Positions 5,185 to 37,201 of a stretch of 64,000 nt of DNA are shown here, one piece after another (position 1 is the first letter of the stretch; every line of letters begins with the position of its first letter). The stretch is from Mayamaea pseudoterrestris (lineage: Eukaryota). The stretch covers positions 248,001 to 312,000 of the forward strand of contig BROI01000013.1 of assembly GCA_027923505.1 (NCBI GenBank), read 5' to 3'. The notes beneath the pieces were generated by a model that saw only the letters and a program-made list of their open reading frames with translations, was not told the origin of the DNA and searched no databases. Made by a program: the position numbers and the translations under genes.

Positions 5185-5231
5185 ATTGAGAAGTGGTTGA
5201 AATTTTCATGTGACTTACGTAAAACACTGAA

Positions 5232-8874: not shown

Positions 8875-9015
8875 CGTTGTCGTCGTGACAATGTTCTTGC
8901 TATCACCTGCGGAACTTTCCGGGCCAAGAACCAACGTGCGTCCACGTTACTTCGTAAATCAATAGTACTCTTCGTCGATAAAGTCTCTATGCCGAGGCAA
9001 TGAGTCTCAAGACAG

Positions 9016-9339: not shown

Positions 9340-9598
9340 TTGCAGTATACTGAGACACCAGCTAGGCATACCATCTTGTAGCGCAGACTTATAATGATGT
9401 TGGCACCATTCTGGTCTGATTTGGGTGTATACCTGGCATGTTTTATGGGAAATTGAATGTCCAGGCATCTGTGGGCTGAGACTGGTGAGAACTTCTCACC
9501 AGTCACATTGGCAGTCTACTAAGGCACCCACCTGAAACACCATCTTGTAGCGCAGATGGCATAATGATGTGGCACTATTCTGGTGTGACTTTGGGTGT
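9340..9598 (-). repeat. About 1.5 diverged, inverted copies of the 169-bp satellite A
   Basis: CTGAGACACCAGC..ACCATCTTGTAGCGCAG..ATAATGATGTTGGCACCATTCTGG is the reverse complement of the A monomer. Confidence 0.9.
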
Positions 9599-10306
9599 AT
9601 GGAATGGACTTCATGCACCACGCTCTGGCCATGCTCTGGCCAATGCTCCAGGGAATGTGTTGAAGAAACTGCACCAGCTGACTGCCAAACACCAACCAGG
9701 CACCAACCACTTGCTGAAGGAGGCTCTGTGCATCAATGATCCATCAAACAGGCCAATGCTGTCCAGCCATGGTAGTGGAAGGGCGCCATGGCACGATATA
9801 GTCTATACTTCATTGTTTTATGAACCATAAAATGATGGGCCTAGCCATTGTTCCTGCTATATGCCACTTGCTCTGGCACCCACAAGCACATGGAATGATC
9901 CATTTTTGCGCATAAACCCAAAACATGTATGTTAGTGACTGTTCTACATCCCATGGAATGGATATCATGCACCAGGGTCTCTCCAAGCTCTGGCCAATGC
10001 TCCAGAGACTGTGTGGAAATGACACACCAAGTGACCATCAAAAACCAACCAGGCTCCAACCTTTTGCTGAAGAAGGCTCAGTGCATTAATGATCAGTCAA
10101 ACAGGCCATTGCTGTCCTGTCATGGTAGTGGAAGGGCGCCATGACTCATTATAGTTTCCATTTCCATTGTATTATGAAACATAAAATGATGGCCCAAGCC
10201 ATTGCTCCTGCTATATGCCACTTGCTCTGGCACCCACAAGCACATTGAATAATCTATTCTTGCGCACAAACAAAATAAATCATGTTATGTCTGTTCTACA
10301 TCCCAT
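9599..10306. repeat. Tandem repeat C, 354-bp unit, 2 diverged copies
   Basis: ATGGAATGGA..TCATGCACCA starts at 9599 and 9953. CATGGTAGTGGAAGGGCGCCATG and GCTATATGCCACTTGCTCTGGCACCCACAAGCACAT recur in both copies. Confidence 0.9.
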
Positions 10307-12302
10307 TTGGATCATCACAAAAATCCCAACTGAAACTTTGCTGTGTTTGGCAAATGGAACACCCTACTTGTTTCAGTCTCAGTCACACCACAGCCACTGC
10401 CAGAATTGCTGCTGTTTTCAAGTTCCATGCCTTGGACCTTGTCAAGCACCCTCTGCGGATTGCAGTAGCAGGTTCGGATTCTTGGTGGCCAGGTTGCATC
10501 ACTATACAAATCCCATCTGAAACTTTGATGTGGTGGAACCACTTGGAGGAACCTACTTGCTGTATTCACGAACAAACACTGGCTGACTGGCTTCCAAATT
10601 GGAAAATCTCAACCTTTGACTTTGTCAAACATCTTATCCTGATTGCCATGGCATGCTCAGAATCATGCTAGCAAAGTTGGATCATCTCATAAATCCCAAC
10701 TGAAACTTTGCTGTGTTTGGCACATGGAACACCTTACTTGTTTCAGTCTCAGTCACATCACAGCCACTGCCGGAATAGCTGCTGTTTTCAAATTTCCATG
10801 CCTTGGACCTTGTCAAGCGCCTTCTGCGGATTGCAGTAGCAGGTTCAGATTCTTGGTGGCCAGGTTGCATCACTATACAAATCCCATCTGAAACTTTGAT
10901 GTGGTGGAACCACTTGGAGCAACCTACTTGCTGTATTCACGAACAAACACTGGCTGACGGGTTTCCAATTTAAAGCATCTCAACCTTTGAATCTGTCAAA
11001 CATCTTATCCTGATTGCCATGGCATGCTCAGTATCATGCTAGCAAGGTTTGATCATCACATAAATCACAACTGAAACTTTGTTGCGTTTGGCACATGGAA
11101 CACCCTACTTGTTTCAGTCTCAGTCACATCACAGCCACTGCCGGAATTGCTGCTGTTTTCAAAGTTCCAAGTTTTGGACCTTGTCAAGCACCTACTGTGG
11201 ATTGCAGTAGCAGGTTCAGATTCTTGGTGGCCAGGTTGCATCACTATACAAATCCCATCTGAAATTTTGACATTGTGGAACCTACTTGCTGTATTCATGC
11301 ACAGCCACTGGCTGACTGGCTTCCAAATTGGAACATCTCAACATTTGACTTTGTCAAACATCTTATCCTGATTGCCATGGCATGCTCAGAATCATGCTAG
11401 CAAGGTTGGATCATCACATAAATCCCAAATGAAACTTTGCTGTGTTTGGCACATGGAATAGCCTACTTGTTTCAGTCTCAGTCACACCTCAGCCACAGCC
11501 AGAATTGCTGCTGTTTTAAAAGTTCCAAGCCTTGGACCTTGTCAAGCACCCTCTGCGGATTGCAGTAGCATGTTCAGATTCTTGCTGGCCAGGTTGCATC
11601 ACTGTACAAGTCCCATCTGAAACTTTGACATTGTGGAACCTACTTGCTGTATTCGCTAGCACTGCTGCTGGCTTCAAAGTGGACTTCTTTCAATTCTGTT
11701 AGGCGCTCAGAATCAGAAGGTTGGTATCTCAACTGAAACTTTGCTGTGTTTGGCACATGGAACACCCTACTTGTTTCAGTCTCAGTCACACCTCAGCCAC
11801 TGCCAGAATTGCTGCTGTTTTCAAAGTTCCAAGCCTTGGACCATGTCAAGCACCCTCTGCGGATTGCAGTAGCAGGTTCAAGATTCTTGGTGGCCAGGTT
11901 GCATCACTATACAAATCCCATCTGAAACTTTGACATTGTGGAACCTACTTGCAATATTTACGCATGAACACTGGCTGACTGGCTTCCAAATTGGAACATC
12001 TCAACCTTTGACTTTGTCAAACATCTAATCCTGATTGCCATGGCATGCTCAGAATCATGCTAGCAAGGTTGGATCATCACATAAATCCCAACTGAAACTT
12101 TGCTGTGTTTGGCACATGGAACACCCTACTTGTTTCAGTCTCAGTCACATCACAGCCATTGCCAGAATTGCTGCTGTTTTCAAAGTTCCAAGTTTTGGAC
12201 CTTGTCAAGCACTCTCTGCAGACTGCAGTAGCAGGTTCAGATTCTTGGTGGCCAGGTTACATCACTATACAAATCCCATCTGAAACTTTGACGTGGTAGA
12301 AC
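10307..12302. repeat. Satellite B block 1 (371-bp unit, with ~358-bp variants), about 5-6 copies
   Basis: Recurrent GATTGCCATGGCATGCTCAGAATCATGCTAGCAAGGTTGGATCATCACATAAATCCCAACTGAAACTTTGCTGTG. One unit near 11650-11730 is degraded. Confidence 0.95.
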
Positions 12303-15300
12303 ATGGTATGCTTTGCGGGTGTCTCAGGTAATGGCAATGTATTTGGTGACAACTTGTCACCAGTCTCAGCCAGCAGATGGTGTGACATTCAAACGCACCT
12401 ACAGCAAGCCTTGTAGGTGCCCATATCACACCAGAATGGTGTCAGCATCATTATTCAGGCTGCGCTACAAGATGGTAGGTATGGCGGGTGTCTCAGGGGA
12501 TGGCAATGTTTTTGGTGACAACTTGTCACCATTCTCAGCCGCAGATGCCGTGACATTCAAACGCACCTACAGCAAGCCCTGTAGGTGCCCAAAATACACC
12601 AGAATGGTGCCAACATCATTACAGGCTGTGCTACAAGATGGTAGGCTTGGCTGGTGTCTCAGGGGATGGCAATGTATTTGGTGACAACTTGTCACCAGTC
12701 TCAGCCCGCAGATGCCGTAAGTTTCAAACGCCCCTACAGCAAGCCCTGTAGGTGCCCAAATACACCAGAATGGTGCCAAAATCCTTATTCAGGCTGTGCT
12801 ACAAAAATGGTAGGCATGGCTGGTGTCTCAGGGGATGGCAATGTATTTGGTGACAACTTGTCACCAGTCTCAGCCCGCAGATGCCGTGACATTCAACCCC
12901 CCTACAGCAGGCCCTGTAGGTGCCTGAATTACACGAGAATGGTGCCAACATCATTATTCAGGCTGCGCTACAAGATGGTAGGCTTGGCTGGTGTCTCAGG
13001 GGATGACAATGTATTTGGTGACAACGTGTCACCAGTCTCAGCCCGCAGATGCCGTGACATTCAAACGCCCCTACAGCAGGCCCTGTAGGTGCCCAAATTA
13101 CACCAGAATGGTGCCAACATCATTATTCAGGCTGCGCTACAGGATGGTAGGCTTGGCTGGTGTCTCAGGGGATGGCAATGTATTTGGTGACAACTTGTCA
13201 CCAGTCTCAGCCCGCAGATGTCGTGACATTCAAAGCCCCTACAGCAAGCCCTGTAGATGCCCAACATACACCAGAATGGTGCCAACATCATGAATCAGGC
13301 TGCGCTACAAGATGGTAGGCTTGGCTGGTGTCTCAGGGGATGGCAATGTATTTGGTGACAACTTGTCACCAGTCTCAGCCCGCAGATGCCGTGACATTCA
13401 AACGCCCCTACAGCAGGCCCTGTAGGTGCCCAAATTACACCAGAATGGTGCCAACATCCTTATGCAGGCTGCGCTACAAGATGGTAGACTTGGCGGGTGT
13501 CTCAGGGGATGGCAATGTATTTGGTGACAACTTGTCACCAGTCTCAGCCCACAGATGCCGTGACATTCAAACGCCCCTACAGCAAGCCATGTAGGTGCCC
13601 AAACCACACAAAAATGGTGACAACATCATTATGTAGGCTGCGCTACAAGATGGTAGGCTTGGCGGGTGTCTCAGGGGATGGCAATGTATTTGGTGACAAC
13701 TTGTCACCAGTCTCAGCCCGCAGATGCCGTGACATTCAAACGCCCCTACAGCAAGCCCTGTAGGTGCCCATAATACACCAGAATGGTGCCAACATCCTTA
13801 TGCAGGCTGCGCTACAAGATGGTAGGCTTGGCTGGTGTCTCAGGGGATGGCAATGTATTTGGTGACAACTTGTCACCAGTCTCAGCCCGCAGATGCCGTG
13901 ACATTCAAACATCCCTACAGCAAGCCCTGTAGGTGCCCAAAATACACCAGAATGGTGCCAACATCATTATTCAGGCTGCGCTACAAGATGGTAGGCTTGG
14001 CGGGTGTCTCAGGGGATGGCAATGTATTTGGTGACAACTTGTCACCAGTCTCAGCCCACAGATGCCGTGACATTCAAACGCCCCTACAGCAAGCCATGTA
14101 GGTGCCCAAATCACACCAGAAATGGTGACAACATCATTATTATGGCTGCGCTACAAGATGGTAGGCTTAGCTGGTGTCTTAGGGGATGGCAATGTATTTG
14201 GTGACAACTTGTCACCAGTCTCAGCCCGCAGATGCCGTGACATTCAAACGCCCCTACAGCAAGCCCTGTAGGTGCCCATAATACACCAGAATGGTGCCAA
14301 CATCATTATTCAGGCTGCGCTACAAGATGGTAGGCTTGGCTGGTGTCTCAGGGGATGGCAATGTATTTGGTGACAACTTGTCACCAGTCTCAGCCCGCAG
14401 ATGCCGTGACATTCAAACACCCCTACAGCAAGCCCTGTAGGTGCCCAAAATACACCAGAATGGTGCCAACATCCTTATTCTGGCTGCGCTACAAGATGGT
14501 AAGCTTGGATGGTGTCTCAGGGGATGGCCATGTATTTGGTGACAACTTGTCACCAGTCTCAGCCCGCAGATGCCGTGACATTCAAACGCCCCTACAGCAA
14601 GCCCTGTAGGTGCCCAAAATACACCAGAATGGTGCCAACATCCTTATTCAGGCTGCGCTACAAGATGGTAGGCTTTACTGGTGTCTCAGGGGATGGCAAT
14701 GTATTTGGTGACAACTTGTCACCAGTCTCAGCCCGCAGATGCTGTGACATTCAAACGCCCCTACAGCAAGCCCTGTAGGTGCCCAAAATAAACGTTATGG
14801 TGACAACATCATTATTCAGGCTGCGCTACAAGATGGAGGCTTGGCTGGTGTCTCAGGGGATGGCAATGTAATTGGTGACAACTTGTCACCATTCTCAGCC
14901 CGCAGATGCCGTGACATTCAAACGCCCCTACAGCAAGCCCTGTAGGTGCCCAAAATACACCAGAATGGTGCCAACATTATTATTCAGGCTGCGCTACAAG
15001 ATGGTAGGCTTGGCTGGTGTCTCAGGGGATGGCAATGTATTTGGTGACAACTTGTCACCAGTCTCAGCCCGCAGATGCCGTGAGTTTCAAACGCCCCTAC
15101 AGCAAGCCCTGTAGGTGCCCAAAATACACCAGAATGGTGCCAACATCATTATTCAGGCTGCGCTACAAGATGGTAGGCTTGGCTGGTGTCTCAGGGGATG
15201 GCAATGTATTTGGTGACAACTTGTCACCAGTCTCAGCCCGCAGATGCTGTGACATTCAAACGCCCCTACAGCACGCCCTGTAGGTGCCCATAATACACCA

Positions 15301-18300
15301 ATATGGTGCCAACATCCTTATGCAGGCTGCGCTACAAGATGGTAGACTTGGCTGGTGTTTCAGGGGATGGCAATGTATTTGGTGACAACTTGTCACCAGT
15401 CTCAGCCCGCAGATGCCGTGACATTCAAACGCCCCTACAGCAAGACCTGTAGGTGCCCAAAATAAAACAGAATGGTGCCAACATCATTACTCAGGCTGCG
15501 CTACAAGATGGTAGGCTTAGCTGGTGTCTCAGGGGATGGCAATGTATTTGGTGACAACTTGTCACCAGTCTCAGCCCGCAGATGCTGTGACATTCAAACG
15601 CCCCTACAGCAAGCCCTGTAGGTGCCCATAATACACCAGAATGGTGCCAACATCCTTATGCAGGCTGCGCTACAAGATGGTAGGCTTGGCTGGTGTCTCA
15701 GGGGATGGCAATGTATTTGGTGACAACTTGTCACCAGTCTCAGCCCGCAGATGCCGTGACATTCAAACGCCCCTACAGCACGCCCTGTAGGTGCCCATAA
15801 TACACCAGAATGGTGCCAACATCCTTATTCAGGCTGCGCTACAAGATGGTAGACTTGGCTGGTGTCTCAGGGGATGGCAATGTATTTGGTGACAACTTGT
15901 CACCAGTCTCAGCCAGCAGATGCTGGAACATTCAAATGCCCCTACAGCAAGCCCTGTAGGGGCCCAAAATAGGGCCAACATCATTTCAGGCTGCTTGTGC
16001 AAGATGGTTGTTTCAGGGGATGGCAATGTATTTGGTGACAACTTGTCACCAGTCTCAGCCCGCAGATGCCGTGACATTCAAACGCCCCTACAGCAAGCCC
16101 TGTAGGTGCCCATAATACACCAGAATGGTGCCAACATCCTTATGCAGGCTGCGCTACAAGATGGTAGGCTTGGCTGGTGTCTCAGGGGATGGCAATGTAT
16201 TTGGTGACAACTTGTCACCAGTCTCAGCCCGCAGATGCCATGACATTCAAACACCTCTACAGCAAGCCCTGTAGGTGCCCATAATACATCAGAATGGTGC
16301 CAACATCCTTATTCAGGCTGCGCTACAAGATGGTAAGCTTGGATGGTGTCTCAGGGGATGGCAATGTATTTGGTGACAACTTGTCACCAGTCTCAGCCCG
16401 CAGATGCCGTGACATTCACACGCCCCTACAGCAAAACCTGTAGGTGCCCAAAATAAAACAGAATGGTGCCAACATCATTACTCAGGCTGCGCTACAAGAC
16501 GGTGGGCTTAGCTGGTGTCTCAGGGGATGGCAATGTATTTGGTGACAACTTGTCACCAGTCTCAGCCCGCAGATGCCGTGACATTCAAACGCCCCTACAG
16601 CAAGCCCTGTAGGTGCCCATAATACACCAGAATGGTGCCAACATCCTTATGCAGGCTGCGCTACAAGATGGTAGGCTTGGTTGGTGTCTCAGGGGATGGC
16701 AATGTATTTGGTGACAACTTGTCACCAGTCTCAGCCCCCAGATGCCGTGACATTCAAACGCCCCTACAGCAAGCCCTGTAGGTGCCCAAAATACACCAGA
16801 ATGGTGCCAACATCATTATGCAGGCTGCGCTACAAGATGGTAGGCTTGGCTGGTGTCTCAGGGGATGGCAATGTTTTTGGTGACAACTTGTCACCAGTCT
16901 CAGCCCACAGATGCCGTGACATTCAAACGCCCCTACAGCAAGCCATGTAGGTGCCCAAATCACACCAGAAATGGAGACAACATCATTATTCAGGCTGCGC
17001 TACAAGATGGTAGGCTTGGCGGGTGTCTCAGGGAATGGCATTGTATCTGGTGACAACTTTTCACCAGTCTCAGCCCGCAGATGCCGGGACATTCAAACGC
17101 ACCCACAGCAAGCCCTGTAGGTGCCCAAAATACACCGGAATGGTGCCATCATCATTATTCAGGCTGCGCTACAAGATGGTAGGCTTGGCTGGTGTCTCAG
17201 GGAATGGCAATGTAATTGGTGACAACTTGTCACCAGTCTCAGCCCGCAGATGCCGTGAGTTTCAAACGCCCCTACAGCAAGCCAGAATGGTGCCAAAATC
17301 CTTATTCAGGCTGAGCTACAAGATGGTAGGCTTGGCTGGTGTCTCAGGGGATGGCAATGTATTTAATGACAACTTGTCACCAGTCTCAGCCCGCAGATGC
17401 CATGACATTCAAACGCCCCTACAGCAAGCCCTGTAGGTGCCCATAATATACCAGAATGGTGCCAACATCCTTATGCAGGCTGCGCTACAAGATGGTAGGC
17501 TTGGCTGGTGTCTCAGGGGATGGCAATGTATTTGGTGACAACTTGTCACCAGTCTCAGCCCGCAGATGCCGTGACATTCACACGCCCCTACAGCAAGACC
17601 TGTAGGTGCCCAAAATAAAACAGAATGGTGCCAACATCATTATTCAGACTGCGCTACAAGATGGTGGGCTTAGCTGGTGTCTCAGGGGATGGCAATGTAT
17701 TTGGTGACAACTTGTCACCAGTCTCAGCCCGCAGATGCCGTGACATTCAAACGCCCCTACAGCAAGCCCTGTAGGTGCCCATAATACATTAGAATGGTGA
17801 CAACATCCTTATGCAGGCTGCGCTACAAGATGGTAGGCTTGGCTGGTGTCTCAGGGGATGGCAATGTATTTGGTGACAACTTGTCACCAGTCTCAGCCTG
17901 GCAGATGCTGACAGTCCGCACCCTACAGCAACCTGGTCCAATCCACACCAGAAATGGTGACAACATCTTATTCGGGCTGCGCTACAAATGTGCTGCGGGT
18001 GTCTCAGGGAATTGTATTTGGTGACAACTTGTCACCAGTCTCAACCACAGATGCCGGGACATTCAAACGCACCTACAGCAAGCCCACTTGTGGTGCCCAA
18101 AATCACCAGAATGTCTACATCAGCTGCGCTACAAGATGGTAGCTTGGCGGGTGTCTCAGGGGTTGGCAATGTATTTGGTGACAACTTGTCACTCCTGCCG
18201 GGACATTCATTCCCTCAGGCTCGCTTTGGTATTTTGACACTTTCTCCCCAATTTCAAACCCCTCATTGGACAACGTGCCTCTTTTCTACATGTATTGCGG

Positions 18301-21300
18301 TTCAGATCTTTGGACATCCTTATAACCGAATTGGTGCCAACATCGCACTGCGCTCTTACACTGCGCGTCGGGACTTGTGCGTGGTACGGTCGTCACTTTG
18401 CGTAAGAAGGCCCAAACTGGTACAAATATTTTCCTGGCAGTTTTGGACACTTGTCTCTCGCCGCCAGAAGCTCTGCCAAGCCCCGTTAATGACTTGTTAT
18501 GGCAATGTATTTGGTGACAACTTGTCACTCACCAGAGATGCCGTGACATTCAAACGCACCTACAGCAACCCTGTGGGTCCCTAACACATTCAATCCGTAT
18601 CGCTGCGCTACAAATGTGCTTGCGGGTGTCTCGTGGTTTTTGGTGACAACTTGTTCACCAGTCTCACCATGCCGTGACATTCAAACGCCCCTACAGCAAG
18701 CCCTGTGGTGCCCAAATACACGAATGGTGCCAACATCATTATTTAGCTGCGCTACAAATGGTAGGCTTGGCTGGTGTCTCAGGGAATGGCAATGTATTTG
18801 GTGACAACTTGTTCTCCATCTCGGGCATGCCGTGACTTTCAAACGCCCCTAACAACCTTCTGTGCCCAAAAACCAATTGGCATCTTTTTCAGCTGCGCTA
18901 CAAGATGTAGCTTGGCCGGTTCTCAGACCGTCTCAGCTGCAGATGCCGTGACATTCAAACGCACCTACAGCAACCGTGCCCCCAACCCCACATATGGTGA
19001 CAACATCATTTTTCAGGCTGCGCTACAAGATGGTAAGCTTGGCTGGTGTCTCAGGGGATGACAATGTTTTGTGACAACTTGTCACCTGTCTCCCCCCACA
19101 ACACGCCCGCCTCACGCTACTGGTAGACTTGGCGGGTGTCTAGTTTGGGGCACACATTCAAACGCCCCCAAACGTGCCCCCAACCAATGTACAACATCAG
19201 TGGCTGCCATTAAGGCGTGGCTTGGCGGTTCTTAATGTTTTGGTGACAACTTGTCACTCTCCTATATCAAACCGCCCAAGCACACATCTCCTTTCGCTGT
19301 CTTGTTTGCTTCCCGGGGGTCCCCCCCCAAACCCTGTCGTCCCCAATGAAACATAATTTGCTTGGCGGGTGTCTGGGATTGGCAATATTTTGACAACTTG
19401 TCCGTCTCGCCATCCGTGATTTCAAACGCCCACAGCAACCCTTAGGTCCCACCAGAATGGTGCCAACATATTTCAGGCTGCGCTACAAGATGGTAGCTTG
19501 GCGGGTTCTCAGGGGATGGCAATGTATTTGGTGACAACTTGTCACAGTCTCAGCCCACAGGGGAATTCCAACGCCCACAGCAGCCTGGGTGCCCAAATAC
19601 ACCCAGAAATGGGTGACAACATCTTTTCAGGCTGCGCTACAAGTAACTTGGCGGGTGTCTCAGGAATGCAATTATCTGTGGTGACAACTTGTCACCAGTC
19701 TCAGCTCCAGATCCGGACATTCACGCACCTACAGCAGGCCCTGTAGGTGCCCAAATTACACCAGAATGGTGCCTTCATCATTATTCAGGCTGCGCTACAA
19801 GATGGTAGGCTTGGCTGGTGTCTCAGGGGATGGCAATGTGTTTGGTGACAACTTGTCACCAGTCTCAGCCATCAGATGCGGTGACATTCAAACGCCCCTA
19901 CAGCAAGCCCTGTAGGTGCCCAAAATACACCAGAATGGTGCCAACATCCTTATTTAGGCTGCGCTACAAGATGGTAGGCTTGGCTGGTGTCTCAGGGATT
20001 GGCAATGTATTTGGTGACAACTTGTCACCAGTCTCAGCCCACAGATGCCATGACCTTCAAACGCCCCTAAAGCAAGCCCTGTAGGTGCCCAAATACACCA
20101 TAATGGTGCCACATCATTATTGGCGCTCAAGATGGTAGGCTTGACTGGTGTCTCAGGGGATGGCAATGTATTTGGTGACAACTTGTCACCAGTCTCAGCA
20201 AACAGATGCCGTGACATTCAAACGCCCTACAGCAAACCCTGTAGGAGCCCAAAATACACCAGAATGGTGCCAACATCATTATTCAAGCGGCGCTACAAGA
20301 TGGTAGGCTTGGCTGGTGTCTCAGGGGATGGCAATGTATTTGGTGACAACTTGTCACCAGTCTCAGCCCGCAGATGCTGTGACATTCAAATGCACCTACA
20401 GCAAGCCCTGTAGGTGCCCAAACCACACCAGAAATGGTGACAACATCATTATTCAGGCTTCGCTACAAGATGGTAGTCTTGGCTGGTGTCTCAGGGGATG
20501 GCAATGTATTTGGTGACAACTTGTCACCAGTCTCAGCCCGCAGATGCCGTGACATTCAAACGCCCCTACAGCAAGCCCTGTAGGTGCCCAAAATACACCA
20601 GAATGGTGCCAACATCATTATTCAGGCTGCGCTACAAGATGGTAGGCTTGGCTGGTGTCTCAGGGGATGGCAATGTATTTGGTGACAACTTGTCACCAGT
20701 CTCAGCCCGCAGATGCCGTGACATTCAAACGCCCCTACAGCAAGCCCTGTAGGTGCCCAAAATACACCAGAATGGTGCCAACATCATTATTCAGGCTGCG
20801 CTACAAGATGGTAGGCTTGGCTGGTGTCTCAGGGGATGGCAATGTATTTGGTGACAACTTGTCACCAGTCTCAGCCCGCAGATGCCGTGACATTCAAACG
20901 CCCCTACAGCAAGCCCTGTAGGTGCCCAAAATACACCAGAATGGTGCCAACATCATTTTTCAGGCTGCGCTACAAGATGGTAGGCTTGGCTTGTGTCTCA
21001 GGGGATGGAAATGTATTTGGTGACAACTTGTCACCAGTCTCAGCCCGCAGATGCCGTGACATTCAAACGCCCCTACAGCAAGCCCTGTAGGTGCCCAAAT
21101 TACACCAGAATGGTGCCAACATCATTATGTAGGCTGCGCTACAAGAGGGTAGGCTTGGCCGGTGTCTCAGGGCATGGCAATGTATTTGGTGACAACTTGT
21201 CACCAGTCTCAGCCCGCAGATGCCGTGACATTCAAACGCCCCTACAGCAAGCCCTGTAGGTGCCCAAAATACACCAGAATGGTGCCAACATCATTATTCA

Positions 21301-27422: not shown

Positions 27423-30400
27423 TGAAAATCTCAACCTTTGACTTTGTCAAACATCTTATCCTGATTGCCATGGCATGCTCAGAATTATGCTAGCAAGGTT
27501 GGATCATCTTTTAACTCCCAACTGAAACGTTGCTGTGTTTAGAACATGGAACACCCTACTTGTTTCAGTCTCAATCACATCACAGCCACTGCTGGAATTG
27601 CTGCTGTTTTCAAAGTTCCAAGTTTTGTACCTTGTCAAGCACCTACTGCGGATTGCAGTAGCAGGTTCAGATTCTTGGTGGCCAGGTTGCATCACTATAC
27701 TAGTCCCATCTGAAACTTTGACATTGTGGAACCTACTTGCTGTATTCACGCACAGCCACTGGCTGACGGGTTTCCAAATTTGAACATCTCAACCTTTGAC
27801 TTTGTCAAACATCTTATCCTGATTGCCATGGCATGCTCAGAATCATGCTAGCAAGGTTGGATCATCACATAAATCCCAACTGAAACTTTGCTGTGTTTGG
27901 CACATGGAACACCCTACTTGTTTCAGTCTCAGTCACACCACAGCCACTGCCAGAATTGCTGCTGTTTTTCAAAGTTCCAAGTTTTGGACCTTGTCAAGCA
28001 CCTTCTGCGGATTGCAGTAGCAGGTTCAGATTCTTGGTGGCCAGGTTGCATCTCACTATACAAATCCCATCTGAAACTTTGACATGGTGGAACCACTTGG
28101 AGGACCTTACTTGCTATATTTATGCATAGCCACTGGCTGACAGGTTTCCAATTTGGAACATCTCAACATTTAACTTCATCAAACATCTTATCCTGATTGC
28201 CATGGCATGCTCAGAATCATGCTAGCAAGGTTGGATCCTCACATAAATCCCAACTGAAACTTTGCTGTTTTTTGCACATGTAACACCCTACTTGTTTCAG
28301 TCTCAGTCACACCTCAGCCACTGCCAGAATTGCTGCTGTTTTTCAAAGTTCCAAGCCGTGGACCTTTTCAAGCACCCTCTGCGGATTGCAGTAGCAGGTT
28401 CAGATTCTTAATGGCCAGGTTGCTTCACTATTCAAGTCCCATCTGAAACTTTGACGTGGTGGAACCACTTGGAGGAACCAACTTGCTATATTCACCCATG
28501 ACCACTGGCTGACTGGCTTCCAAATTTGAACATCTCAACCCTTGATTTTGTCAAACAGCTTATCCTGATTGCCATGGCATGCTCAGAATCATGCTAGCAA
28601 GGTTGGATCCTCACATAAATCCCAACTGAAACTTTGCTGTGTTTGGCACATGTAACACCCTACTTGTTTCAGTCTCAGTCACACCTCAGCCACTGCCAGA
28701 ATTGTTTATAGTTCCAAGCCTTGCACCTTGTCAAGTACCCTCTGCGGATTGCAGTAGCAGGTTCAGATTCTTGCTGGCCAGGTTGCATCACTATACAAGT
28801 CCCACCTGAAACTTTGACTTGACGGAACCACTTGGAGGAACCTACTTGCTATATTTACGCATGACCACTGGCTGACGGGCTTCCAAAATGGAACAACTCA
28901 ACCTTTGACTTTGTCAAACATCTAATCCTGATTGTCATGGCATGCTCAGAATCATGCTAGCAAGGTTGGATCATCACATAAAACCCAACTGAAACTTTGC
29001 TGTGTCTGGCACATGGATCACCTTACTTGTTTCAGTCTCAGCCACACCTCAGCCACTGCCAGAATTGCTGCTGTTTTCAAAGTTCCAAGTTTTGGACCTT
29101 GTCAAGCACCTTCTGCGGATTGCAGTAGCAGGTTCAGATTCTTGGTGGCCAGGTTGCATCACTATTCCAGTCTCATCTGAAACTTTGATGTGGTGGAACC
29201 ACATGGAGGAACCTACTTGCTAAATTTACGCATGAACACTGGCTGACTGGCTTCCAAATTGGAACATCTCAACCTTTGACATTGTCAAACATCTAATCCT
29301 GATTGCCATAGCATGCTCAGAATCATGCTAGCAAGGTTGGATCATCACATAAATCCCCACTGAAACTTTGCTGTATTTGGCACATGGAACACCCTACTTG
29401 TTTCAGTCTTAGTCGCCCCTCAGCCACTGCCAGAATTTTTTAAAGTTCCAATCTTTGGACCTTGTCAAGTACCCTCTGCGAATTGGAGTAGCAGGTTCAG
29501 ATTCTTGGTGGCCAGGTTGCATCACTATACAAGTCCCATCTGAAACTTTGAAGTGGTGGAACCACGTAAAGGAACCTACTTGCTATATTTATGCATGACC
29601 ACTGGCTGACTGGCTTCCAAATTAGAACATCTCCACCTTTGACTTTGTCAAACATCTAATCCTGATTGCCATGGCATGCTCAGAATCATGCTAGCAAGGT
29701 TGGATCATCACATAAATCCCAACTGAAACTTTGCTGTGTTTGGCACATGGAACACCCTACTTGTTTCAGTCTCAGTCACACCTCAGCCACTGCCAAAACT
29801 GCTGCTGTGTTCAAAGTTCCAAGCCTTGGACCTTGTGAAGCACCCTCTGCGGATTGCAGTAGCAGGTTCAGATTCTTGGTGGCCAGGTTGCATCACTATA
29901 CAAATCCCATCTGAAACTTTGATGTGGTGGAACCACTTGGAGGACCTTACTTGCTATATTCACCCATGAACACTGGCTGACTGGCTTCCAAATTGGAACA
30001 TCTCAACCTTTGACTTTGTCAAACATCTAATCCTGATTGCCATGGCATGCTCAGAATCATGCTAGCAAGGTTGGATCATCACATAAATCCCCACTGAAAC
30101 TTTGCTGTGTTTGGCACATGGAACACCCTACTTGTTACAGTCTCAGTCACACCTCAGCCACTGCCAGAATAGCTGCTGTTTTCAAAGTTCCAAGCCTTGG
30201 AACCTGTCAAGCACCTTCTGCAGATTGCAGTAGCAGGTTCAGATTCTTGGTGGCCAGGTTGCATCACTATACAAGTCCCATCTGAAACTTTGATGTGGTG
30301 GAACCACTTAAAGTAACCAACTTGCTATATTTACGCATGACCACTGGCTGACTGACTTCCAAATTGGAACATCTCAACCTTTGACTTTGTCAAACATCTT

Positions 30401-30916
30401 ATTCTGATTGCCATGGCATGCTCAGAATCATGCTAGCAAGGTTGGATCATCACATAAATCCCAACTGAAACTTTGCTGTGTTTGGCACATGGAACACCCT
30501 ACTTGTTTCAGTCTCAGTCACACCTCAGCCACTGCCAGAATTGCTGCTGTTTTCAAAGTTCCAAGCCTTGGACCCTGTCAAGCACCTTCTGGGGATTGCA
30601 GTAGCATGTTCAACACGTGGTGCAGTTCATACAATCATGAAACTTTGCGTGGTGGAACCACTTCGAACCTACTTGCTTTCAGATGCAATTACTGTCTGCC
30701 ACTTGTCAACCATCTATCTGATTGTGCATGCTCAGAATATTTAGCAAGGTTGGATCATCACATAAATCCCAACTGACTTGCTGTGTTGCACATGAACACC
30801 TACTTTTTCAGTCTCAGTCACCTCTCCTCAGCCACTGCCAGAATTGCTGCTGTTTTTCAAAGTTCCAAGCTTGACCTGTCAAGCACCTTCGATGCTAGGT
30901 TCAGATTCTTGCTGGC
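27423..30916. repeat. Satellite B block 2, about 9-10 copies
   Basis: Same 371-bp monomer; ORF track spacing 29666, 30037, 30408. Confidence 0.95.
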
Positions 30917-30919
30917 CCT

Positions 30920-32800
30920 TAGGTGCAAATCACCAGAATGGCAACTCAGTATTGCTGCGCTACAGATGTAGCTTGGCTGGTGTCTCAGGGATGCAACTGT
31001 ATTTGGTGACAACTTCACCAGTCTCAAGTGATTAAACCCCTACAGCAAGCCTGTAGGTGCCGCAAATACACAATGGTGCCAACATCATTATTCAGGCTGC
31101 GCTACAAGATGGTAGGCTTGGCTGGTGTCTCAGGGTATGGCAATGTATTTGGTGACAACTTGTCACTCAGCCACCCGCAGATGCCGTGACATTCAAACGC
31201 CCCTACAGCAAGCCCTGTAGGTGCCCAAATTACACCAGAATGGTGCCAACATCATTATTCAGGCTGCGCTACAGGATGGTAGGCTTGGCTGGTGTCTCAG
31301 GGGATGGCAATGTATTTGGTGACAACTTGTCACCAGTCTCAGCCCGCAGATGCCGTGACATTCAACCCCCCTACAGCAAGCCCTGTAGGTGCCTAAATTA
31401 CACCAGAATGGTGTCAACATCATTATTCAGGCTGCGCTACAAGTTGGTAAGCTTGGATGGTGTCTCAGGGGATGGCAATGTATTTGGTGACAACTTGTCA
31501 CCAGTCTCAGCCCGCAGATGCCGTGACATTCAACCCCCCTACAGCAGGCCCTGTAGGTGCCTGAATTACACGAGAATGGTGCCAACATCATTATTCAGGC
31601 TGCGCTACAAGATGGTAGGCTTGGCTGGTGTCTCAGGGGATGGCAATGTATTTGGTGACAACTTGTCACCAGTCTCAGCCCGCAGATGCCGTGACATTCA
31701 AAGCCCCTGCAGCAAGCCCTGAAGATGCCCAACATACACCAGAATGGTGCCAACATCATTATTCAGGCTGCGCTACAAGATGGTAGGCTTTCTATGTATT
31801 TGGTGACAACTTGTCACCAGTCTCGCCCGCAGATGTCGTGACATTCGCCCCTACAGCAAGCCCTGTAGGTGCCCAAACAGGGACAGAAGGTGCCACATCA
31901 TTATTCAGCTGCTTTACTGATGTGTCTCAGGGGATGGCAATGTGACTTGTCACCAGTCTCAGCCCGCAGATGCCGTGACATTCAAATGCCCCTACAGCAG
32001 GCCCTGTAGGTGCCCCAAATTACACCAGAATGGTGCCAACATCATTATTCAGGCTGCGCTACAAGTATGGTAAGCTTGGCTGGTGTCTCAGGGGATGGCA
32101 ATGTATTTGGTGACAACTTGTCACCAGTCTCAGCCCCAGATGCCGTGACATTCAACCCCCTACAGCAGGCCCTGTAGGTGCCCGAATTACACCAGAATGG
32201 TGCCAACATCATTATTCAGGCTGCCGCAAGATGGTAGCTTGGCTGGTGTCTCAGGGGATGGCAATGTGTTGGTGACAACTTGTCACCAGTCTCAGCACAG
32301 ATGCCGTGACATTCAACCCGCTACAGCAGGCCCTGTAGGTGCCCAAATTACAGCCAGAATGGTGCCAACATCATTATTCAGGCTGCGCTACAGTATGGTA
32401 GCTGGTCTGTGTCTCAGGGGATGGCAATGTATTTGCTGACAGCTTGTCACCAGTCTCAGCCCGCAAATGCCGTGACATTCAGACACACCTACAGCAGGCC
32501 CTGTAGATGCCCAAATTACACCAGAATGGTGCCAACATCATTATTCAGGCTGCGCTACAAGATGGTAGGCTTGGCTGGTGTCTCAGGGGATGGCAATGTA
32601 TTTGGTGACAACTTGTCACCAGTCTCAGCCCGCTGAAAATCTCAACCTTGACGTCACGCAGATGCCAGTGACATTCAGCTTGCAGGGCCGGGTGCCACAT
32701 ACACCAGAATGGTGCCAACAATTCATGGATGGTGGCCTTGGCTTTGTCTCAGATGGCAATATATTTGGTGACAACTTGTCACCAGTCTTCAGCCGCAGAC
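30920..32800. repeat. Satellite A second array, about 10 copies, noisy
   Basis: 169-bp monomers with many indels, ending in the same A-to-B junction as seen at 27422. Confidence 0.9.
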
Positions 32801-32809
32801 CTGCCAAAT

Positions 32810-35800
32810 TAACCTCTCAGCCTTGACTTTCCCTCTTATCCTGATTGCCATGGCATGCTCAGAATCATGCCAACAGGTTGATCATCATAAATCCCAACTG
32901 AAACTTTGCTACGTGTGTTGGCACATGGAACACCCTACTTGTTTCAGTCTCACGCCAGCAGATAGCGCTTCAAAGTTCCAAGCCCTACAGCACCTTGTGG
33001 TTGCCAAGTAGCAGCAGAATCGGTGGCCAAGTGCATCATATACAGACCCATCTGCTTTGAGTGGCTTGGATGGAATGTACTTGGTGCATTACGCTCACCA
33101 CTGCTGACGGGTTTCCAAATTTGAACAGCTCAACCTTTGACTTTGTCAAACATCTTATCCTGATTGCCATGGCATGCTCAGAATCATGCTAGCAAGGTTG
33201 GATCATCTTTACTATCCCAACTGAAACGTTGCTGTGTTTAGAACATGGAACACCCTACTTGTTTCAGTCTCAATCACATCACAGCCACTGCTGGAATTGC
33301 TGCTGTTTTCAAAGTTCCAAGTTTTGTACCTTGTCAAGCACCTACTGCGGATTGCAGTAGCAGGTTCAGATTCTTAATGGCCAGGTTGCATCACTATACT
33401 AATCCCATCTGAAACTTTGACATTGTGGAACCTACTTGCTGTATTCACGCACAGCCACTGGCTGACGGGTTTCCAAATTTGAACATCTCAACCTTTGACT
33501 TTGTCAAACATCTTATCCTGATTGCCATGGCATGCTCAGAATCATGCTAGCAAGGTTGGATCATCACATAAATCCCAACTGAAACTTTGCTGTGTTTGGC
33601 ACATGGAACACCCTACTTGTTTCAGTCTCAGTCACACCACAGCCACTGCCAGAATTGCTGCTGTTTTTCAAAGTTCCAAGTTTTGGACCTTGTCAAGCAC
33701 CTTCTGTGGATTGCAGTAGCAGGTTCAGATTCATGGTGGCCAGGTTGCATCTCACTATACAAATCCCATCTGAAACTTTGACATGGTGGAACCACTTGGA
33801 GGAACCAACTTGCTATATTTACGCATAGCCACTGGCTGACAGGTTTCCAATTTGGAACATCTCAACATTTAACTTCATTAAACATCTTATCCTGATTGCC
33901 ATGGCATGCTCAGAATCATGCTAGCAAGGTTGGATCCTCACATAAATCCCAACTGAAACTTTGCTGTTTTTTGCACATGTAACACCCTACTTGTTTCAGT
34001 CTCAGTCACACCTCAGCCACTGCCAGAATTGCTGCTGTTTTTCAAAGTTCCAAGCCTTGGACCTTGTGAAGCACCCTCTGCGGATTGCAGTAGCAGGTTC
34101 AGATTCTTGGTGGCCAGGTTGCATCACTATACAAGTCCCATCTGAAACTTTGATGTGGTGGAACCACTTGGAGTAACCAACTTGCTATATTTACGCATGA
34201 CCACTGGCTGACTGACTTCCAAATTGGAACATCTCAACCTTTGACTTTGTCAAACATCTTATCCTGATTGCCATGGCATGCTCAGAATCATGCTAGCAAG
34301 GTTGGATCATCACATAAATCCCAACTGAAACTTTGCTGTGTTTGGCACATGGAACACCCTACATGTGTCAGTCTCAGTCACACCTCAGCCACTGCCAGAA
34401 TTGCTGCTGTTTTCAAAGTTCCAAGCCTTGGACCCTGTCAAGCACCTTCTGCGGATTGCAGTAGCATGTTCAGATTCTTGGTGGCCAGGTTGCATCACTA
34501 TACAAGTCCCATCTGAAACTTTGACGTGGTGGAACCACTTGGAGGAACCTACTTGCTATATTTACAAATGAACACTGGCTGACTGGCTTCCAAATTGGAA
34601 CATCTCAACCTTTGACTTTGTCAACCATCTAATCCTGATTGCCATGGCATGCTCAGAATCATGCTAGCAAGGTTGGATCATCACATAAATCCCAACTGAA
34701 CCTTTGCTGTGTTTGGCACATGGAACACCCTACTTGTTTCAGTCTCAGTCGCACCTCAGCCACTGCCAGAATTGCTGCTGTTTTCAAAGTTCCAAGCCTT
34801 GTACCTTGTCAAGCACCTTCTGCGGATTGCAGTAGCAGGTTCAGATTCTTGCTGGCCAGGTTGCATCACTATACAAGTCCCATCTGAAACTTTGACGTGG
34901 TGGAACCACTTGGAGGAACCTACTTGCTATATTTACGCTTAACCATTGGCTGACTGACTATCAAATTGGAACATCTCAACCTTTGACTTTGTCAAATATC
35001 TTATTCTGATTGCCATGGCATGCTCAGAATCATGCTAGCAAGGTTGGATCATCACCTAAATCCCAACTGAAACTTTGCTGTGTTTGGCACATGGAACACC
35101 CTACTTGTTTCAGTCTCAGTCACACCTCAGCCACTGCCAGAATTGCTGCTGTTTTCAAAGTTCTAAGCCTTGGAACCTGTCAAGCACCTTCTGGGGATTG
35201 CAGTAGCATGTTCAAATTCTTGGTGGCCAGGTTGCATCACTATACAAGTCCCATCTGAAACTTTGACGTGGTGGAACCACTTGGAGGAACCTACTTGCTA
35301 TATTTACGCTTAACCATTGGCTGACTGACTTCCAAATTGGAACATCTCAACCTTTGACTTTGTCAAATATCTTATTCTGATTGCCATGGCATGCTCAGAA
35401 TCATGCTAGCAAGGTTGGATCATCACATAAATCCCAACTGAAACTTTGCTGTGTTTGGCACATGGAACACCCTACTTGTTTCAGTCTCAGTCACACCACA
35501 GCCACTGCCAGAATTGCTGCTGTTTTCAAAGTTCCAAGCCTTGAAACCTGTCAAGCACCTTCTGCGGATTGCAGTAGCATGTTCAGATTCTTGGTGGCCA
35601 GGTTGCATCACTATACAATACCCATCTGAAACGTTGACGTGGTGGAACCACTTGGAGGAACCAACTTGCTATATTTATGCATTGCCACTGGCTGACGGGC
35701 TTCCAAATTGAAACATCTCAACCTTTGACTTTGTCAAACATCTTATCCTGATTGCCATGGCATGCTCAGAATCATGCTAGCAAGGTTGGATCATCACATA

Positions 35801-36512
35801 AAACCCAACTGAAACATTGCTGTGTTTGGGCGCATGGAACACCGTACTTGTTTCAGTCTGAATTGCTGCTGTTTTCAAAGTTCCAAGCCTTGGACCTTGT
35901 CAAGCACCCTCTTCGGATTGCAGTAGCAGGTTCAGATTCTTAATGGCCAGGTTGCTTCACTATTCAAGTCCCATCTGAAACTTTGACGTAGTGGAACCAC
36001 TTGGAGGAACCAACTTGCTATATTCACCCATGACCACTGGCTGACTGGCTTCCAAATTTGAACACCTCAACCTTTGATTTTGTCAAACAGCTTATCCTGA
36101 TTGCCATGGCATGCTCAGAATCATGCTAGCAAGGTTGGATCATCACATAAATTCCAACTGAAACTTTGCTGTGATTGGCACATGGAACACCCTACATGTT
36201 TCAGTCTCAGTTGCACCTCAGCCACTGCCAGAATTGTTTAAAGTTCCAAGCCTTGCATTTTGTCAAGTACCCTCTGCGGATTGCAGTAGCAGGTTCAGAT
36301 TCTTGGTGGCCAGGTTGCATCACTATACAAGTCCCATCTGAAACTTTGACGTGACGGAACCACTTGGAGGAACCTACTTGCTATATTTATGCATGACCAC
36401 TGGATGACTGGCTTCCAAATTAGAAAATCTCAACCTTTGACTTTGTCAAACATCTTATCCTGATTGCCATGGCATGCTCAGAATCATGCTAGCAAGGTTG
36501 GATCATCACATG
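32810..36512. repeat. Satellite B block 3, about 10 copies
   Basis: ORF track spacing of exactly 371 (34268, 34639, 35010, 35381, 35752). Confidence 0.95.
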
Positions 36513-36634
36513 CACCAACTTGAGACTTTACCAGATACCATCATTAACACACCAAGCCCAATGGTCCTGGCTCTTCATTCTGTTGCACAAAGTCAACTGC
36601 AGTCACTCAAGTCCAGAACTTCATTAGATAATAT

Positions 36635-36945
36635 CAGCAAAAATGGATGGAAATGGACTACAGGGTGTATTGTTAGGGTGCCAGACTGCAGCACCATGAG
36701 GATGGTTACTCTTTGGACATCTGCCCTCCCATATATTCTGGCTACCAGTAAGCTTCAGATGAGGTAGCTGTGCCAATCTCATAGCAGACTAGTCCCAAAG
36801 CATAGCCAGCAAAAAATGGATGGAAATGGACTACAGGGTGTATTGTTAGGGTGCCAGACTGCAGCACCATGAGGATGGTTACGCTTTGGACATCTACCCT
36901 CCCATAGATTCCAGGCTACAGGTGAGCTTCAGATGAGGTACAGCT
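36635..36945. repeat. Tandem repeat D, 173-bp period, about 1.8 copies
   Basis: ATGGATGGAAATGGACTACAGGGTGTATTGTTAGGGTGCCAGACTGCAGCACCATGAGGATGGTTAC starts at 36643 and 36816. Confidence 0.9.
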
Positions 36946-37201
36946 ACAGTAGTTCTTTATAGGATAACTAACTGACTGCAACGCGGTCGGCAGCTGTTTC
37001 GTAAATGACTCTGATAAACAGTACTATGAGCGCACAGGTCGGATCTTGAGTTTTCACTCGTACACAACCTCCTCGACGCACCACGCATTGCTGCCGATGA
37101 AACTGCCGCACCGTCGAAATGCTTCCCTGCTGCTCGCTCTCTCGTTTCTGAAAGTACGAGATCCGCTGTGAGCGCGCCTCATCCGACAAAGATTCACGAG
37201 G

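Follow-up and report, generated by a model that had tools for sequence, protein, structure and literature searches.

Within the 64,000-nucleotide window, the whole stretch of Mayamaea pseudoterrestris DNA that we analysed, Tandem Repeats Finder (TRF) and self-BLAST delimit a gene-free tandem-repeat block of 27.6 kb, from 9,337 to ~36,950, flanked by two genes in divergent orientation, their 5' ends facing it. From left to right its repeats run in the order inverted diverged A relic, C, B, A, B, A island, B, D, almost to the base as the original prediction had given it (inverted old A, C, B, a 15-kb A, B, A, B, D). The features of the locus are as follows:

2842-5184, protein with Mut7-C and endonuclease/exonuclease/phosphatase domains (Pfam)
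5232-6266, weak ABC-ATPase match (Pfam)
8548..8946, minus strand, left neighbour ORF, CpG-rich; its ATG at ~8874 faces the domain and probably marks a gene 5' end
9337..9595, minus strand, old A relic (A' subfamily), ~1.5 monomers, 75-77% identical to A (BLAST)
9599..10304, plus strand, repeat C, 2 copies of 354 bp, 83% identical (TRF, BLAST)
10307..12302, plus strand, B array 1, 371-bp unit, ~5.4 copies (TRF, BLAST)
12303..27420, plus strand, main A array, 169-bp monomer, 89.4 copies, 15.1 kb (TRF, BLAST)
17900..19900, plus strand, degenerate deletion-rich patch in the A array, perhaps an assembly seam, perhaps an old decayed core
18192..18499, plus strand, non-satellite insert of 308 bp, unique in the window (BLAST matches only itself)
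24231..24249, no strand assigned, example copy of a 19-bp perfect palindrome, TGGTGACAA-C-TTGTCACCA
27410..27440, plus strand, A-to-B junction at which ...CAGCCCGCTGA abuts AAATCTCAACC..., recurring at ~32628-32645 (pairwise alignment)
27424..30870, plus strand, B array 2, ~9.3 copies (TRF, BLAST)
30915..32794, plus strand, A island, ~11 monomers, identity 0.88-0.95 to consensus, with deletions (TRF, BLAST)
32801..36529, plus strand, B array 3, ~10 copies (TRF, BLAST)
36635-36766 and 36807-36940, plus strand, repeat D at the right domain edge, two ~172-bp copies, 93% identical
37202..38605, plus strand, right neighbour, bestrophin-family gene with two exons (Pfam PF25539 on both ORFs)

The left neighbour has a CpG o/e of 1.8-2.0 at 8501-9000 and a Pfam match that is sub-threshold only. 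On the other side, the bestrophin gene also turns its 5' end towards the domain; an RNA-like contig joins 37824 to 37915 across its intron, and the RNA-like contigs that skip this intron start at 37098-37150. These starts, together with the bestrophin ORF from 37202, bear out the abrupt return to genes at 37 kb that had been claimed. The retrotransposon debris claimed on the left did not survive inspection. We found ordinary genes there instead, and no reverse transcriptase, integrase, RNase H or gag domain in any of the 23 ORFs scanned against Pfam (from 56 stop-to-stop ORFs of at least 70 aa in positions 1-9400); the 11 scanned right-flank ORFs likewise contained none of these domains. With no LTR or LINE domains in the scanned flank ORFs, the locus does not show the retrotransposon-rich surroundings of a (peri)centromere such as those of oomycetes.

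The block has the build of satellite DNA, with head-to-tail units of ~100-400 bp in many-kb arrays and a unit without gene, structured-RNA or TE content, as judged by Rfam, a tRNA scan, a Pfam search with one array ORF, and phmmer. Over the full 64 kb, no Rfam family reached gathering score and no tRNA was found. A, B, C and D showed no cross-homology to one another by BLAST, in which C, unrelated to A and B, matched only itself and its sister copy. Near-identical segmental duplications (at least 93%) are absent inside the block except for in-register array shifts. Mean GC is 0.490 in the domain and 0.489 in the flanks (A 51.5%, B 44.8%) and the A period is 169 bp, in agreement with the roughly 50% GC and 169-bp monomer expected from the outset.

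Mean monomer-to-monomer identity in A is flat, at 0.941-0.950 for lags 1-12, and has no peak up to lag 38; we found no higher-order repeat. A 338-bp "dimer" called by TRF was rejected as a higher-order repeat because of this flat lag identity. The most homogeneous stretch of the main array lies at 20.5-24.9 kb, and its edges and the island are more diverged. Every consensus-identical monomer (8 of the 83 full-length ones) falls between 20499 and 24725, a core homogeneity that consensus polishing of a long-read assembly could exaggerate. Folding of whole monomers as DNA was no better than that of shuffles (z = -0.34 for A, 0.08 for B and 1.27 for C), and these values lend no support to non-B DNA or global dyad symmetry at the level of the entire monomer.

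The 19-bp palindrome occurs in nearly every A monomer and is its most conserved part, with a variant rate of 0.64% vs. a median of 3.7% across 19-bp windows, a conservation equalled by 0 of 5000 column permutations. The 25-nt A box gave 91 matches at up to 2 mismatches, compared to 0 expected from 100 shuffles, indicating that the repeat array is not due to chance. When the old A relic was aligned to the A consensus, the palindrome proved to be retained as GGTGAGAAGTTCTCACC, its symmetry preserved by a compensatory double change (C>G/G>C), a covariation that consists of one single event. To judge from these comparisons, the palindrome is under constraint. Its role would most plausibly be that of a hairpin- or cruciform-forming element, or of a dimer-binding element, that aids repeat spread or packaging.

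The three B arrays differ mutually by about 10%. Full-length matches in B array 1 are 74-89% identical to the reference copy, and the last ~1 kb of B array 3 is a 349-bp variant with a separate TRF entry. B also matches itself at half its period (offset ~185 bp, 65-76% identity), and the 371-bp unit is an ancient dimer of ~185-bp subunits. Both A blocks stop at one monomer phase, 41. Since the A-to-B breakpoint is found twice, at 27.42 and 32.63 kb, composite blocks have been duplicated, and the two junction copies diverged after this duplication. We propose that unequal exchange and local amplification built up the block layer by layer. Its rims would retain old short repeats, with D at the right end and, at the left end, C and the inverted A' relic; the 371-bp B arrays, from an old dimer of ~185-bp units, would form the next layer, with the young 169-bp A array, perhaps still homogenising, within B. 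A later block duplication of a composite A-B piece would then have produced the arrangement B-[A-B]-[A-B].

All of these layers are depleted in CpG. CpG o/e is 0.36 in A and 0.30 in the A island; 0.16, 0.13 and 0.17 in B arrays 1, 2 and 3; 0.15 in old A plus C; and 0.04 in the D region (36530-36950); the flanks have values of 1.19 and 1.08. In the interval from 9 to 37 kb, 28 of 28 one-kb windows have a CpG o/e of 0.12-0.66, and outside this interval 36 of 36 are at or above 0.81; the independent units behind these counts number just four or five (A, A', B, C, D), so that their statistical weight falls short of what 28 windows would imply, and CpG depletion in repeats partly mirrors few founder sequences. 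The switch is sharp at both edges (~9.3 kb and ~36.97 kb), each within ~250 bp. TpG/CpA o/e is 1.48-1.74 in the block vs. 1.16-1.19 in the flanks, and in 82 aligned A monomers the transition rate is 4.7% at CpG positions (30/636 cells) vs. 1.3% at non-CpG C/G positions (87/6532), a 3.5-fold excess. We interpret the CpG depletion as the footprint of long-term, putative cytosine methylation. Methylated CpGs would decay to TpG/CpA, which would leave the oldest layers the most CpG-poor. The original prediction had offered a centromere or a heterochromatic knob; the depletion of all 28 windows and the sharp switches at both edges favour its heterochromatin half, and the centromere half is left as a rival.

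To gauge the abundance of the repeats, we used two public DNA-like sequencing runs from two studies, X1 and X2, and summed the word depth of their contigs in bins to the right of the main A array, covering the A island, B and the flanking gene side. Mean depth in single-copy bins (37109-42000) was 36.5 (X1) and 114.3 (X2), compared to ~1,880 and ~24,300 in B bins and ~199,000 and ~1,730,000 in A-island bins. A depth is thus 10^3-10^4 times that of the flanks in X1 and X2, a figure usable as an order of magnitude alone: summed contig depth is not copy number, depth depends on the placement of multi-fitting contigs, and the two runs differ three- to four-fold. The window itself contains only ~100 A and ~25 B monomers.

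Relatives of A were also found by phmmer, which gave three matches when the A ORF was searched over 1.84 billion representatives. One, P0122, is a hypothetical protein from a 917,834-bp contig of Mayamaea pseudoterrestris; another, P0121, has no more than "src" as its recorded source. Each translates A-family monomers, and the window encodes neither, the best identities there being ~80% (P0121) and 66.7% over 54 aa (P0122), the latter in the old A relic. The third match, P0123 (1190 aa, 29% identity), translates an unrelated tandem repeat and was dropped as an A relative. A protein search with P0122 returned only itself, an exact pattern scan for the A box in JGI metagenome contigs found 0 loci, and a pattern search from the A-family ORF alignment gave 229 pattern matches, 0 of them confirmed by tblastn. 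In both X1 (16, 18 and 20 contigs) and X2 (43, 54 and 26 contigs), A-like contigs bear A'-type loose ends. The high A depth and the two A-family ORFs outside the window indicate that A is a major, multi-locus satellite. We conclude that A is a monomer of the major satellite family of this genome, a family with variant subfamilies (A') and far more DNA elsewhere.

Two further runs, X3 and X4, are RNA-like by behaviour, in that their contigs jump over introns and do not extend across intergenic DNA. They hold few A-like contigs, with a summed depth of 0-43 per bin and loose ends that enter unlike sequence, and their cover on B is essentially nil (0-0.22). We conclude neither transcription nor silence from either observation.

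Taken as a whole, the block is best explained, with a probability of about 55%, as non-coding satellite DNA that forms a silent, cytosine-methylated heterochromatic island, both the methylation and the heterochromatin being deduced from base composition and repeat structure; a kinetochore role belongs to the centromere reading, its main rival. It could also be that the satellites are real and that the 15-kb length, the nesting or the placement stems from collapsed or mis-joined long-read overlaps. The patch at 17.9-19.9 kb misses 55-125 bases per 500 bp vs. the consensus, compared to 0-3 in 18 of the 26 other main-array bins, and its 308-bp insert, crossed by a 198-aa ORF with no Pfam match, is not CpG-depleted (CpG o/e 0.92, 17 CpG). 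Patch and CpG-normal insert have the look of a poorly polished join, and their resemblance to an assembly seam makes the array length unreliable. According to the genome report (PMC9724779), the Mayamaea assembly, to which the window may owe its sequence, merged two assemblies, with a Nanopore N50 of 8.6 kb, shorter than the A array, and the A read depth is far above what ~100 monomers explain. Moreover, X1 and X2 contigs fitting from 36571 rightwards continue to the left into unlike, CpG-rich sequence. This sequence is absent from the window, and for that reason we rejected the idea that the loose end is a simple satellite-free allele joining both flanks. However, A, B and the boundary between D and the gene are found on contigs assembled independently in the two studies that yielded X1 and X2 (a 983-letter X1 contig spans 36853-37835, from D into the bestrophin gene), the CpG switches coincide exactly with repeat edges, the A-to-B junction has diverged since its duplication, and the B arrays show mutual differences of ~10%, which collapse would not produce. 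We consider such an artefact improbable. An origin as a subtelomeric or transposon-derived tandem array, such as the internal repeats of a mobile element, appears very improbable. TE parts commonly give rise to satellites, the palindrome could be the relic of a terminal or hairpin element, and the visible left flank is just 9.3 kb of a contig of 922,795 bp, but the block is flanked by ordinary genes, no RT, integrase or transposase domains occur in the scanned ORFs, Rfam and tRNA matches are lacking, and the window contains no TTAGGG array (one twelve-mer with a mismatch, equalled in 13 of 100 shuffles).

The block, or its A core, may alternatively be a satellite-type regional centromere of its chromosome, a candidacy that we regard as possible yet doubtful. 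CENH3 nucleosomes would then sit on the 169-bp monomers, the older B, C and D repeats would be the pericentromere, and the palindrome would be a CENP-B-box-like or non-B-DNA element. Compatible with this are the nucleosome-sized monomers (169, 2x185, 2x177 and 172 bp), the layered age structure with the youngest, most homogeneous array innermost, the gene-free, interstitial position, flanked by genes to the left and right in a window devoid of telomere repeats, the constrained palindromic box, and the great abundance of A, variants of which occur at other loci, including one on a second contig of ~0.92 Mb. Each of these features, however, equally fits non-centromeric satellites, and even a nucleosome-sized monomer with a homogenised core and older flanking layers is a centromere-type trait that is not centromere-specific. 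The A array also lacks a higher-order repeat. The only ChIP-defined diatom centromeres, those of Phaeodactylum, are short, low-GC and repeat-free, and T. pseudonana has similar low-GC regions about once per scaffold (10.1101/096016); Mayamaea groups with Phaeodactylum (BP 93; PMC9724779). The block, in contrast, consists wholly of tandem repeats and has a flank-like GC of 0.490. Where a Phaeodactylum-type centromere has at least 500 bp below 33% GC, together with clustered 100-bp windows of no more than 32%, the lowest 500-bp window here is at 41.6%, and the only such 100-bp window among 1279 lies at 45351, outside the block, whose own 100-bp minimum is 35%. Clear low-GC peaks were seen in only 8 of the homoeologous chromosome pairs of F. 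solaris (10.1101/2021.11.10.468027), suggesting that the low-GC rule is not universal. A more specific version, which we hold to be more doubtful still, is that this close ally of Phaeodactylum swapped a short, AT-rich, sequence-independent centromere for the satellite type, with one A-family array per chromosome, A and A' chromosome-specific, a CENP-B-box-like or cruciform-forming palindrome, and a pericentromere of methylated older satellites.

A heterochromatic satellite island shares features with several known systems. Satellite centromeres of plants and animals are exemplified by the ~178-bp repeat of Arabidopsis and the ~171-bp human alpha satellite. Like these, the block is gene-free and has a nucleosome-sized monomer, head-to-tail arrays tens of kb in length, a homogeneous core with older diverged outer layers, a short conserved box in the monomer and family variants at other loci; unlike these, its GC equals that of the flanks, its A array is only ~15 kb as assembled, and it is without higher-order repeats, which are typical of primates and not obligatory for satellite centromeres. 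Among non-centromeric heterochromatic satellites are the 180-bp knobs of maize and the subtelomeric satellites of green algae. Both these and the two satellite families described for the oomycete Phytophthora parasitica (PMC7290008) are, like A, abundant, nucleosome-sized, multi-locus tandem families, silence in the present case being probable. The block differs from them in being interstitial between active genes, with razor-sharp CpG-decay borders, in a genome that would be compact, to judge from the Mayamaea assembly of ~30 Mb (PMC9724779).

Among diatoms, the centromeres of Phaeodactylum tricornutum, which lie in a small pennate-diatom genome, are likewise intergenic, whereas they comprise at least 500 bp of low-GC (<33%), repeat-free DNA (10.1101/096016). 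The putative centromeres of Fistulifera solaris, a naviculoid diatom, are also intergenic, and are untranscribed; unlike the block they measure 1.4-2 kb, have 36-42% GC, and "none ... contain highly repeated elements" (10.1101/2021.11.10.468027). Also comparable are the methylated transposon islands of diatoms (PMC9998398), in which repeats appear to be targeted by cytosine methylation and silenced, as CpG decay suggests here; the target at our locus is, by contrast, satellite DNA without coding capacity. Full-text literature searches gave no report of a satellite organisation of this kind in diatoms, in keeping with the original prediction, to which no such description was known. Diatom genomes are, to our knowledge, usually pictured with transposons and essentially no satellites. 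In the repeat table of the Mayamaea report (PMC9724779, Table S3), the satellite entry reads "Satellites 0", and 2.26 Mb count as "Unclassified".

In this block a major satellite family with nucleosome-sized units forms an island that has sharp borders, is apparently methylated and lies between active genes. It would thereby lend itself, as a natural system, to the study of heterochromatin boundaries and of how methylation is targeted in a stramenopile with a compact genome, and it warns that such arrays may be under-represented in long-read diatom assemblies. It also allows a cheap, concrete check on whether every diatom centromere follows the low-GC pattern of Phaeodactylum, a question that bears on the design of diatom artificial chromosomes.

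The block was mapped with Tandem Repeats Finder and by searching the window for representative units with BLAST, which reproduced the originally described repeat order of inverted old A, C, B, A, B, A, B, D:

9337-9595, minus strand: inverted A-like relic (old A), 75-77% identity by BLAST
9599-10304: C, 2 x 354 bp, copies 83% identical
10307-12302: first B array, 371-bp unit
12303-27420: main A array, 169 bp, 89.4 copies
27424-30870: second B array
30915-32794: A island, ~11 copies
32801-36529: third B array
36635-36940: D, two ~172-bp copies, 93% identical

BLAST of the units against the window found A, B, C, and D to be mutually dissimilar. It also revealed half-period matches within the B unit, at a ~185-bp offset and 65-76% identity; judging by its sequence, the 371-bp unit is an ancient dimer. 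We extracted 83 full-length A monomers, 53 of them exactly 169 bp long. Their mean pairwise identity was 0.941-0.950 at lags 1-12 with no peak to lag 38, a flat profile indicating that the A array is monomeric and ruling out the 338-bp Tandem Repeats Finder period as a higher-order repeat. The domain had a mean GC content of 0.490, the same as that of the flanks (0.489), with A at 51.5% and B at 44.8%.

CpG observed/expected ratios were 1.19 and 1.08 in the flanks. Within the block, the main A array had a ratio of 0.36 and the island 0.30; the three B arrays ranged from 0.13 to 0.17, old A and C combined had 0.15, and D had 0.04. Behind these figures stand no more than four or five repeat units that are independent of each other. 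The decay was stronger in B, C, and D, apparently the older layers, than in A. At 1-kb resolution, the ratio was 0.12-0.66 in all 28 windows at 9-37 kb and at least 0.81 in all 36 outside; in 250-bp steps, it fell from 1.19 to 0.13 over 9.0-9.75 kb at the left edge and rose from 0.28 to 1.28 at 37.0 kb at the right. TpG/CpA ratios were 1.48-1.74 in the block versus 1.16-1.19 in the flanks. Across 82 aligned A monomers, transitions affected 4.7% of cells (30/636) at the eight CpG positions and 1.3% (87/6532) at the remaining C/G positions. Loss of CpG together with gain of TpG/CpA is the classical scar of 5-methylcytosine deamination, and this footprint points to methylation of the block.

Within the A consensus lies a perfect 9+1+9 palindrome, TGGTGACAA-C-TTGTCACCA, along with two shorter dyads. 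No other 19-bp window of A varies as little as the palindrome (0.64% variant cells vs. a median of 3.7%), and none of 5000 column permutations yielded a window as invariant. In the old A relic, which is only ~76% identical overall, a mirrored pair of substitutions, C>G / G>C, keeps the palindrome perfect as GGTGAGAAGTTCTCACC; this covariation amounts to one event. Whole A, B, and C monomers folded no better than shuffles (z = -0.34, 0.08, and 1.27, respectively), indicating that the constraint is confined to this box and is not a general non-B-DNA property.

Identity to the A consensus peaks midway along the right half of the main array, and all eight consensus-identical monomers lie within 20499-24725; identity drops to 0.92-0.96 at the array ends and 0.88-0.95 in the island. 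The A-to-B breakpoint ...CAGCCCGCTGA|AAATCTCAACC... is common to 27.42 kb and 32.63 kb, and the end phase of the monomer is identical for both A blocks; the two B-to-A junctions are unlike each other. The simplest history would be an expansion of A within a B array followed by duplication of a composite A|B segment, yielding B-[A-B]-[A-B]; C, D, and the inverted old A would form the oldest rims.

We also considered whether this architecture is mainly an assembly artefact. The A array carries many small deletions at 17.9-19.9 kb (55-125 bases missing per 500 bp; 0-3 in most other A-array bins), and a 308-bp piece in this patch (18192-18499) is unique in the window and not CpG depleted (ratio 0.92). 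Patch and piece resemble a chimera or a join left with poor polishing; alternatively, the piece may have inserted very recently into an old core. The named Mayamaea assembly was built from Nanopore reads with an N50 of 8.6 kb and combined two assemblies (PMC9724779); if the window derives from comparable data, the reads were too short to bridge a 15-kb array, and the length given here is a minimum. Contigs from two DNA-like sequencing runs (X1 and X2) that fit rightwards from 36571 extend leftwards into an unlike, CpG-rich sequence (251 letters in X1) that was not found in the window; this alternative junction would place D-like sequence beside unique DNA elsewhere or reflect a haplotype-specific B/D join. 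Run contigs independently support the satellites, the gene models, and the D-to-gene boundary (X1 contig, 36853-37835), and we regard a largely artefactual block as improbable.

To look beyond the window, we compared a translated A-array ORF with 5.8 billion protein clusters and recovered two relatives, P0121 (208 aa) and P0122 (107 aa), the latter being 'hypothetical protein MPSEU_000710100 [Mayamaea pseudoterrestris]' on a 917,834-bp contig. An exhaustive phmmer search added a single match, the translation of an unrelated repeat. Both relatives are translated A-family monomers that the window does not encode: P0122 best matches the old A relic (66.7% over 54 aa), and the best window match of P0121 reaches ~80% at most. 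The public annotation of this species lists the translation of a repeat of the A' variant subfamily as a protein-coding gene, and MPSEU_000710100 is probably a spurious gene model within a satellite array.

For abundance, Logan contigs of four runs were placed on 30700-42000. X1 and X2, which come from two studies, cover intergenic DNA and therefore behave as DNA runs. Mean summed contig depth, which is not copy number and varies with the placement of multi-fitting contigs, was 36.5 (X1) and 114.3 (X2) in single-copy bins (37109-42000), ~199,000 and ~1,730,000 in five A-island bins, and ~1,880 and ~24,300 in ten B bins. A depth exceeds the single-copy level by three to four orders of magnitude, and the ~100 A monomers in the window account for only about two of these; the B excess is far smaller, at ~50-210x single copy for ~25 monomers in the window. 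Loose ends of A-like contigs lead into the A' variant (16, 18, and 20 contigs in X1; 43, 54, and 26 in X2). Together with the depth excess, this indicates that A is a major satellite family with subfamilies, either multi-locus or grossly under-assembled. Repeats of the named assembly are tabulated as 'Satellites 0' and 2.26 Mb 'Unclassified' (PMC9724779, Table S3); A-type arrays would be hidden within the latter class.

A transposon-derived or subtelomeric block seems very unlikely. Retrotransposon debris had been proposed on the left, a claim that did not hold up: none of the 23 ORFs scanned with Pfam, from 56 of at least 70 aa in 1-9400, had a retroelement domain, and no telomere array was found in the window. 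The left flank instead holds a Mut7-C/EEP-domain gene, an ABC-ATPase-like ORF, and a CpG-rich minus-strand ORF. The first is a 780-aa ORF (2842-5184) with an endonuclease/exonuclease/phosphatase domain, which may have prompted the reading as LINE-like debris, and a Mut7-C RNase domain. The minus-strand ORF starts at ~8874, pointing toward the block; positions 8251-9000, abutting the decayed satellite edge, have a CpG ratio of 1.5-2.0 and read as a CpG-island-like 5' region of this ORF, which gave only a sub-threshold Pfam hit. The bestrophin gene on the right begins at 37202, in agreement with the abrupt return to genes originally described at 37 kb, so that the block occupies divergent intergenic space.

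The eukaryotic flank genes encode bestrophin, two PHO4 phosphate transporters, ferroportin, CDP-diacylglycerol synthase, a cNMP-binding protein, and a protein kinase. Among the best 120 of 942 relatives of the synthase, all ten organism-named ones are from diatoms, with identities of, for instance, 58% for Nitzschia inconspicua and 54-59% for Seminavis robusta, which bears out the original assignment to a diatom. The synthase of the window itself is encoded on a 922,795-bp contig. Two adjacent ORFs at 41912-45293 may be a tandem gene duplicate, since each contains the C-terminal part of a PHO4 domain (E 3e-56 and 1e-56); just upstream of them, introns at 41355/41475 and 41758/41832 are skipped by contigs from RNA-like runs. 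At 56284-62080, a 1603-aa ORF bearing three cyclic-nucleotide-binding domains is directly followed by a 330-aa protein-kinase ORF that overlaps its end; the two may belong to a single cGMP/cAMP-dependent kinase gene interrupted by an intron or frame change. A 380-aa minus-strand ORF (38830-39972), covered by RNA-like contigs, weakly matches the ricin-B-type beta-trefoil lectins (E 1e-6) and also the CDtoxinA family (E 2.9e-5). The genic right flank further carries a 50-bp tandem repeat at 47694-47955 (5.2 copies, 88% matches).

We conclude from these sequence features that the block is somewhat more probably (roughly 0.55) a methylated heterochromatic satellite island than anything else. No Rfam family reached its gathering score and no tRNA gene was found in the 64-kb window. 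That the block is a centromere or pericentromere is a tentative alternative, favored by nucleosomal unit sizes, the age layering of the repeats, the gene-free interstitial location, a major family whose variants recur on at least one further contig of ~0.92 Mb, and a constrained box in each A monomer. However, each of these features would suit non-centromeric heterochromatic satellites as well, hence our preference for a satellite island. The block also lacks an AT-rich core, and the Phaeodactylum-type low-GC signature is missing: only 1 of 1279 100-bp windows, lying outside the block, has a GC content of ≤32%, and the lowest 500-bp value in the window is 41.6%. Published work on diatoms also weighs against a centromere: ChIP-defined Phaeodactylum centromeres are low in GC and 'lack repeats', and Thalassiosira pseudonana has similar low-GC regions, about one to a scaffold (10.1101/096016); the putative centromeres of Fistulifera span 1.4-2 kb at 36-42% GC (10.1101/2021.11.10.468027); and Mayamaea groups with Phaeodactylum (PMC9724779).

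In full-text searches of a limited literature set, neither a satellite-type centromere nor a characterised satellite family was found reported for any diatom. Satellite heterochromatin is familiar as a kind; from diatoms it appears not to have been described. The block makes the question of whether all diatom centromeres are of the low-GC type directly testable.
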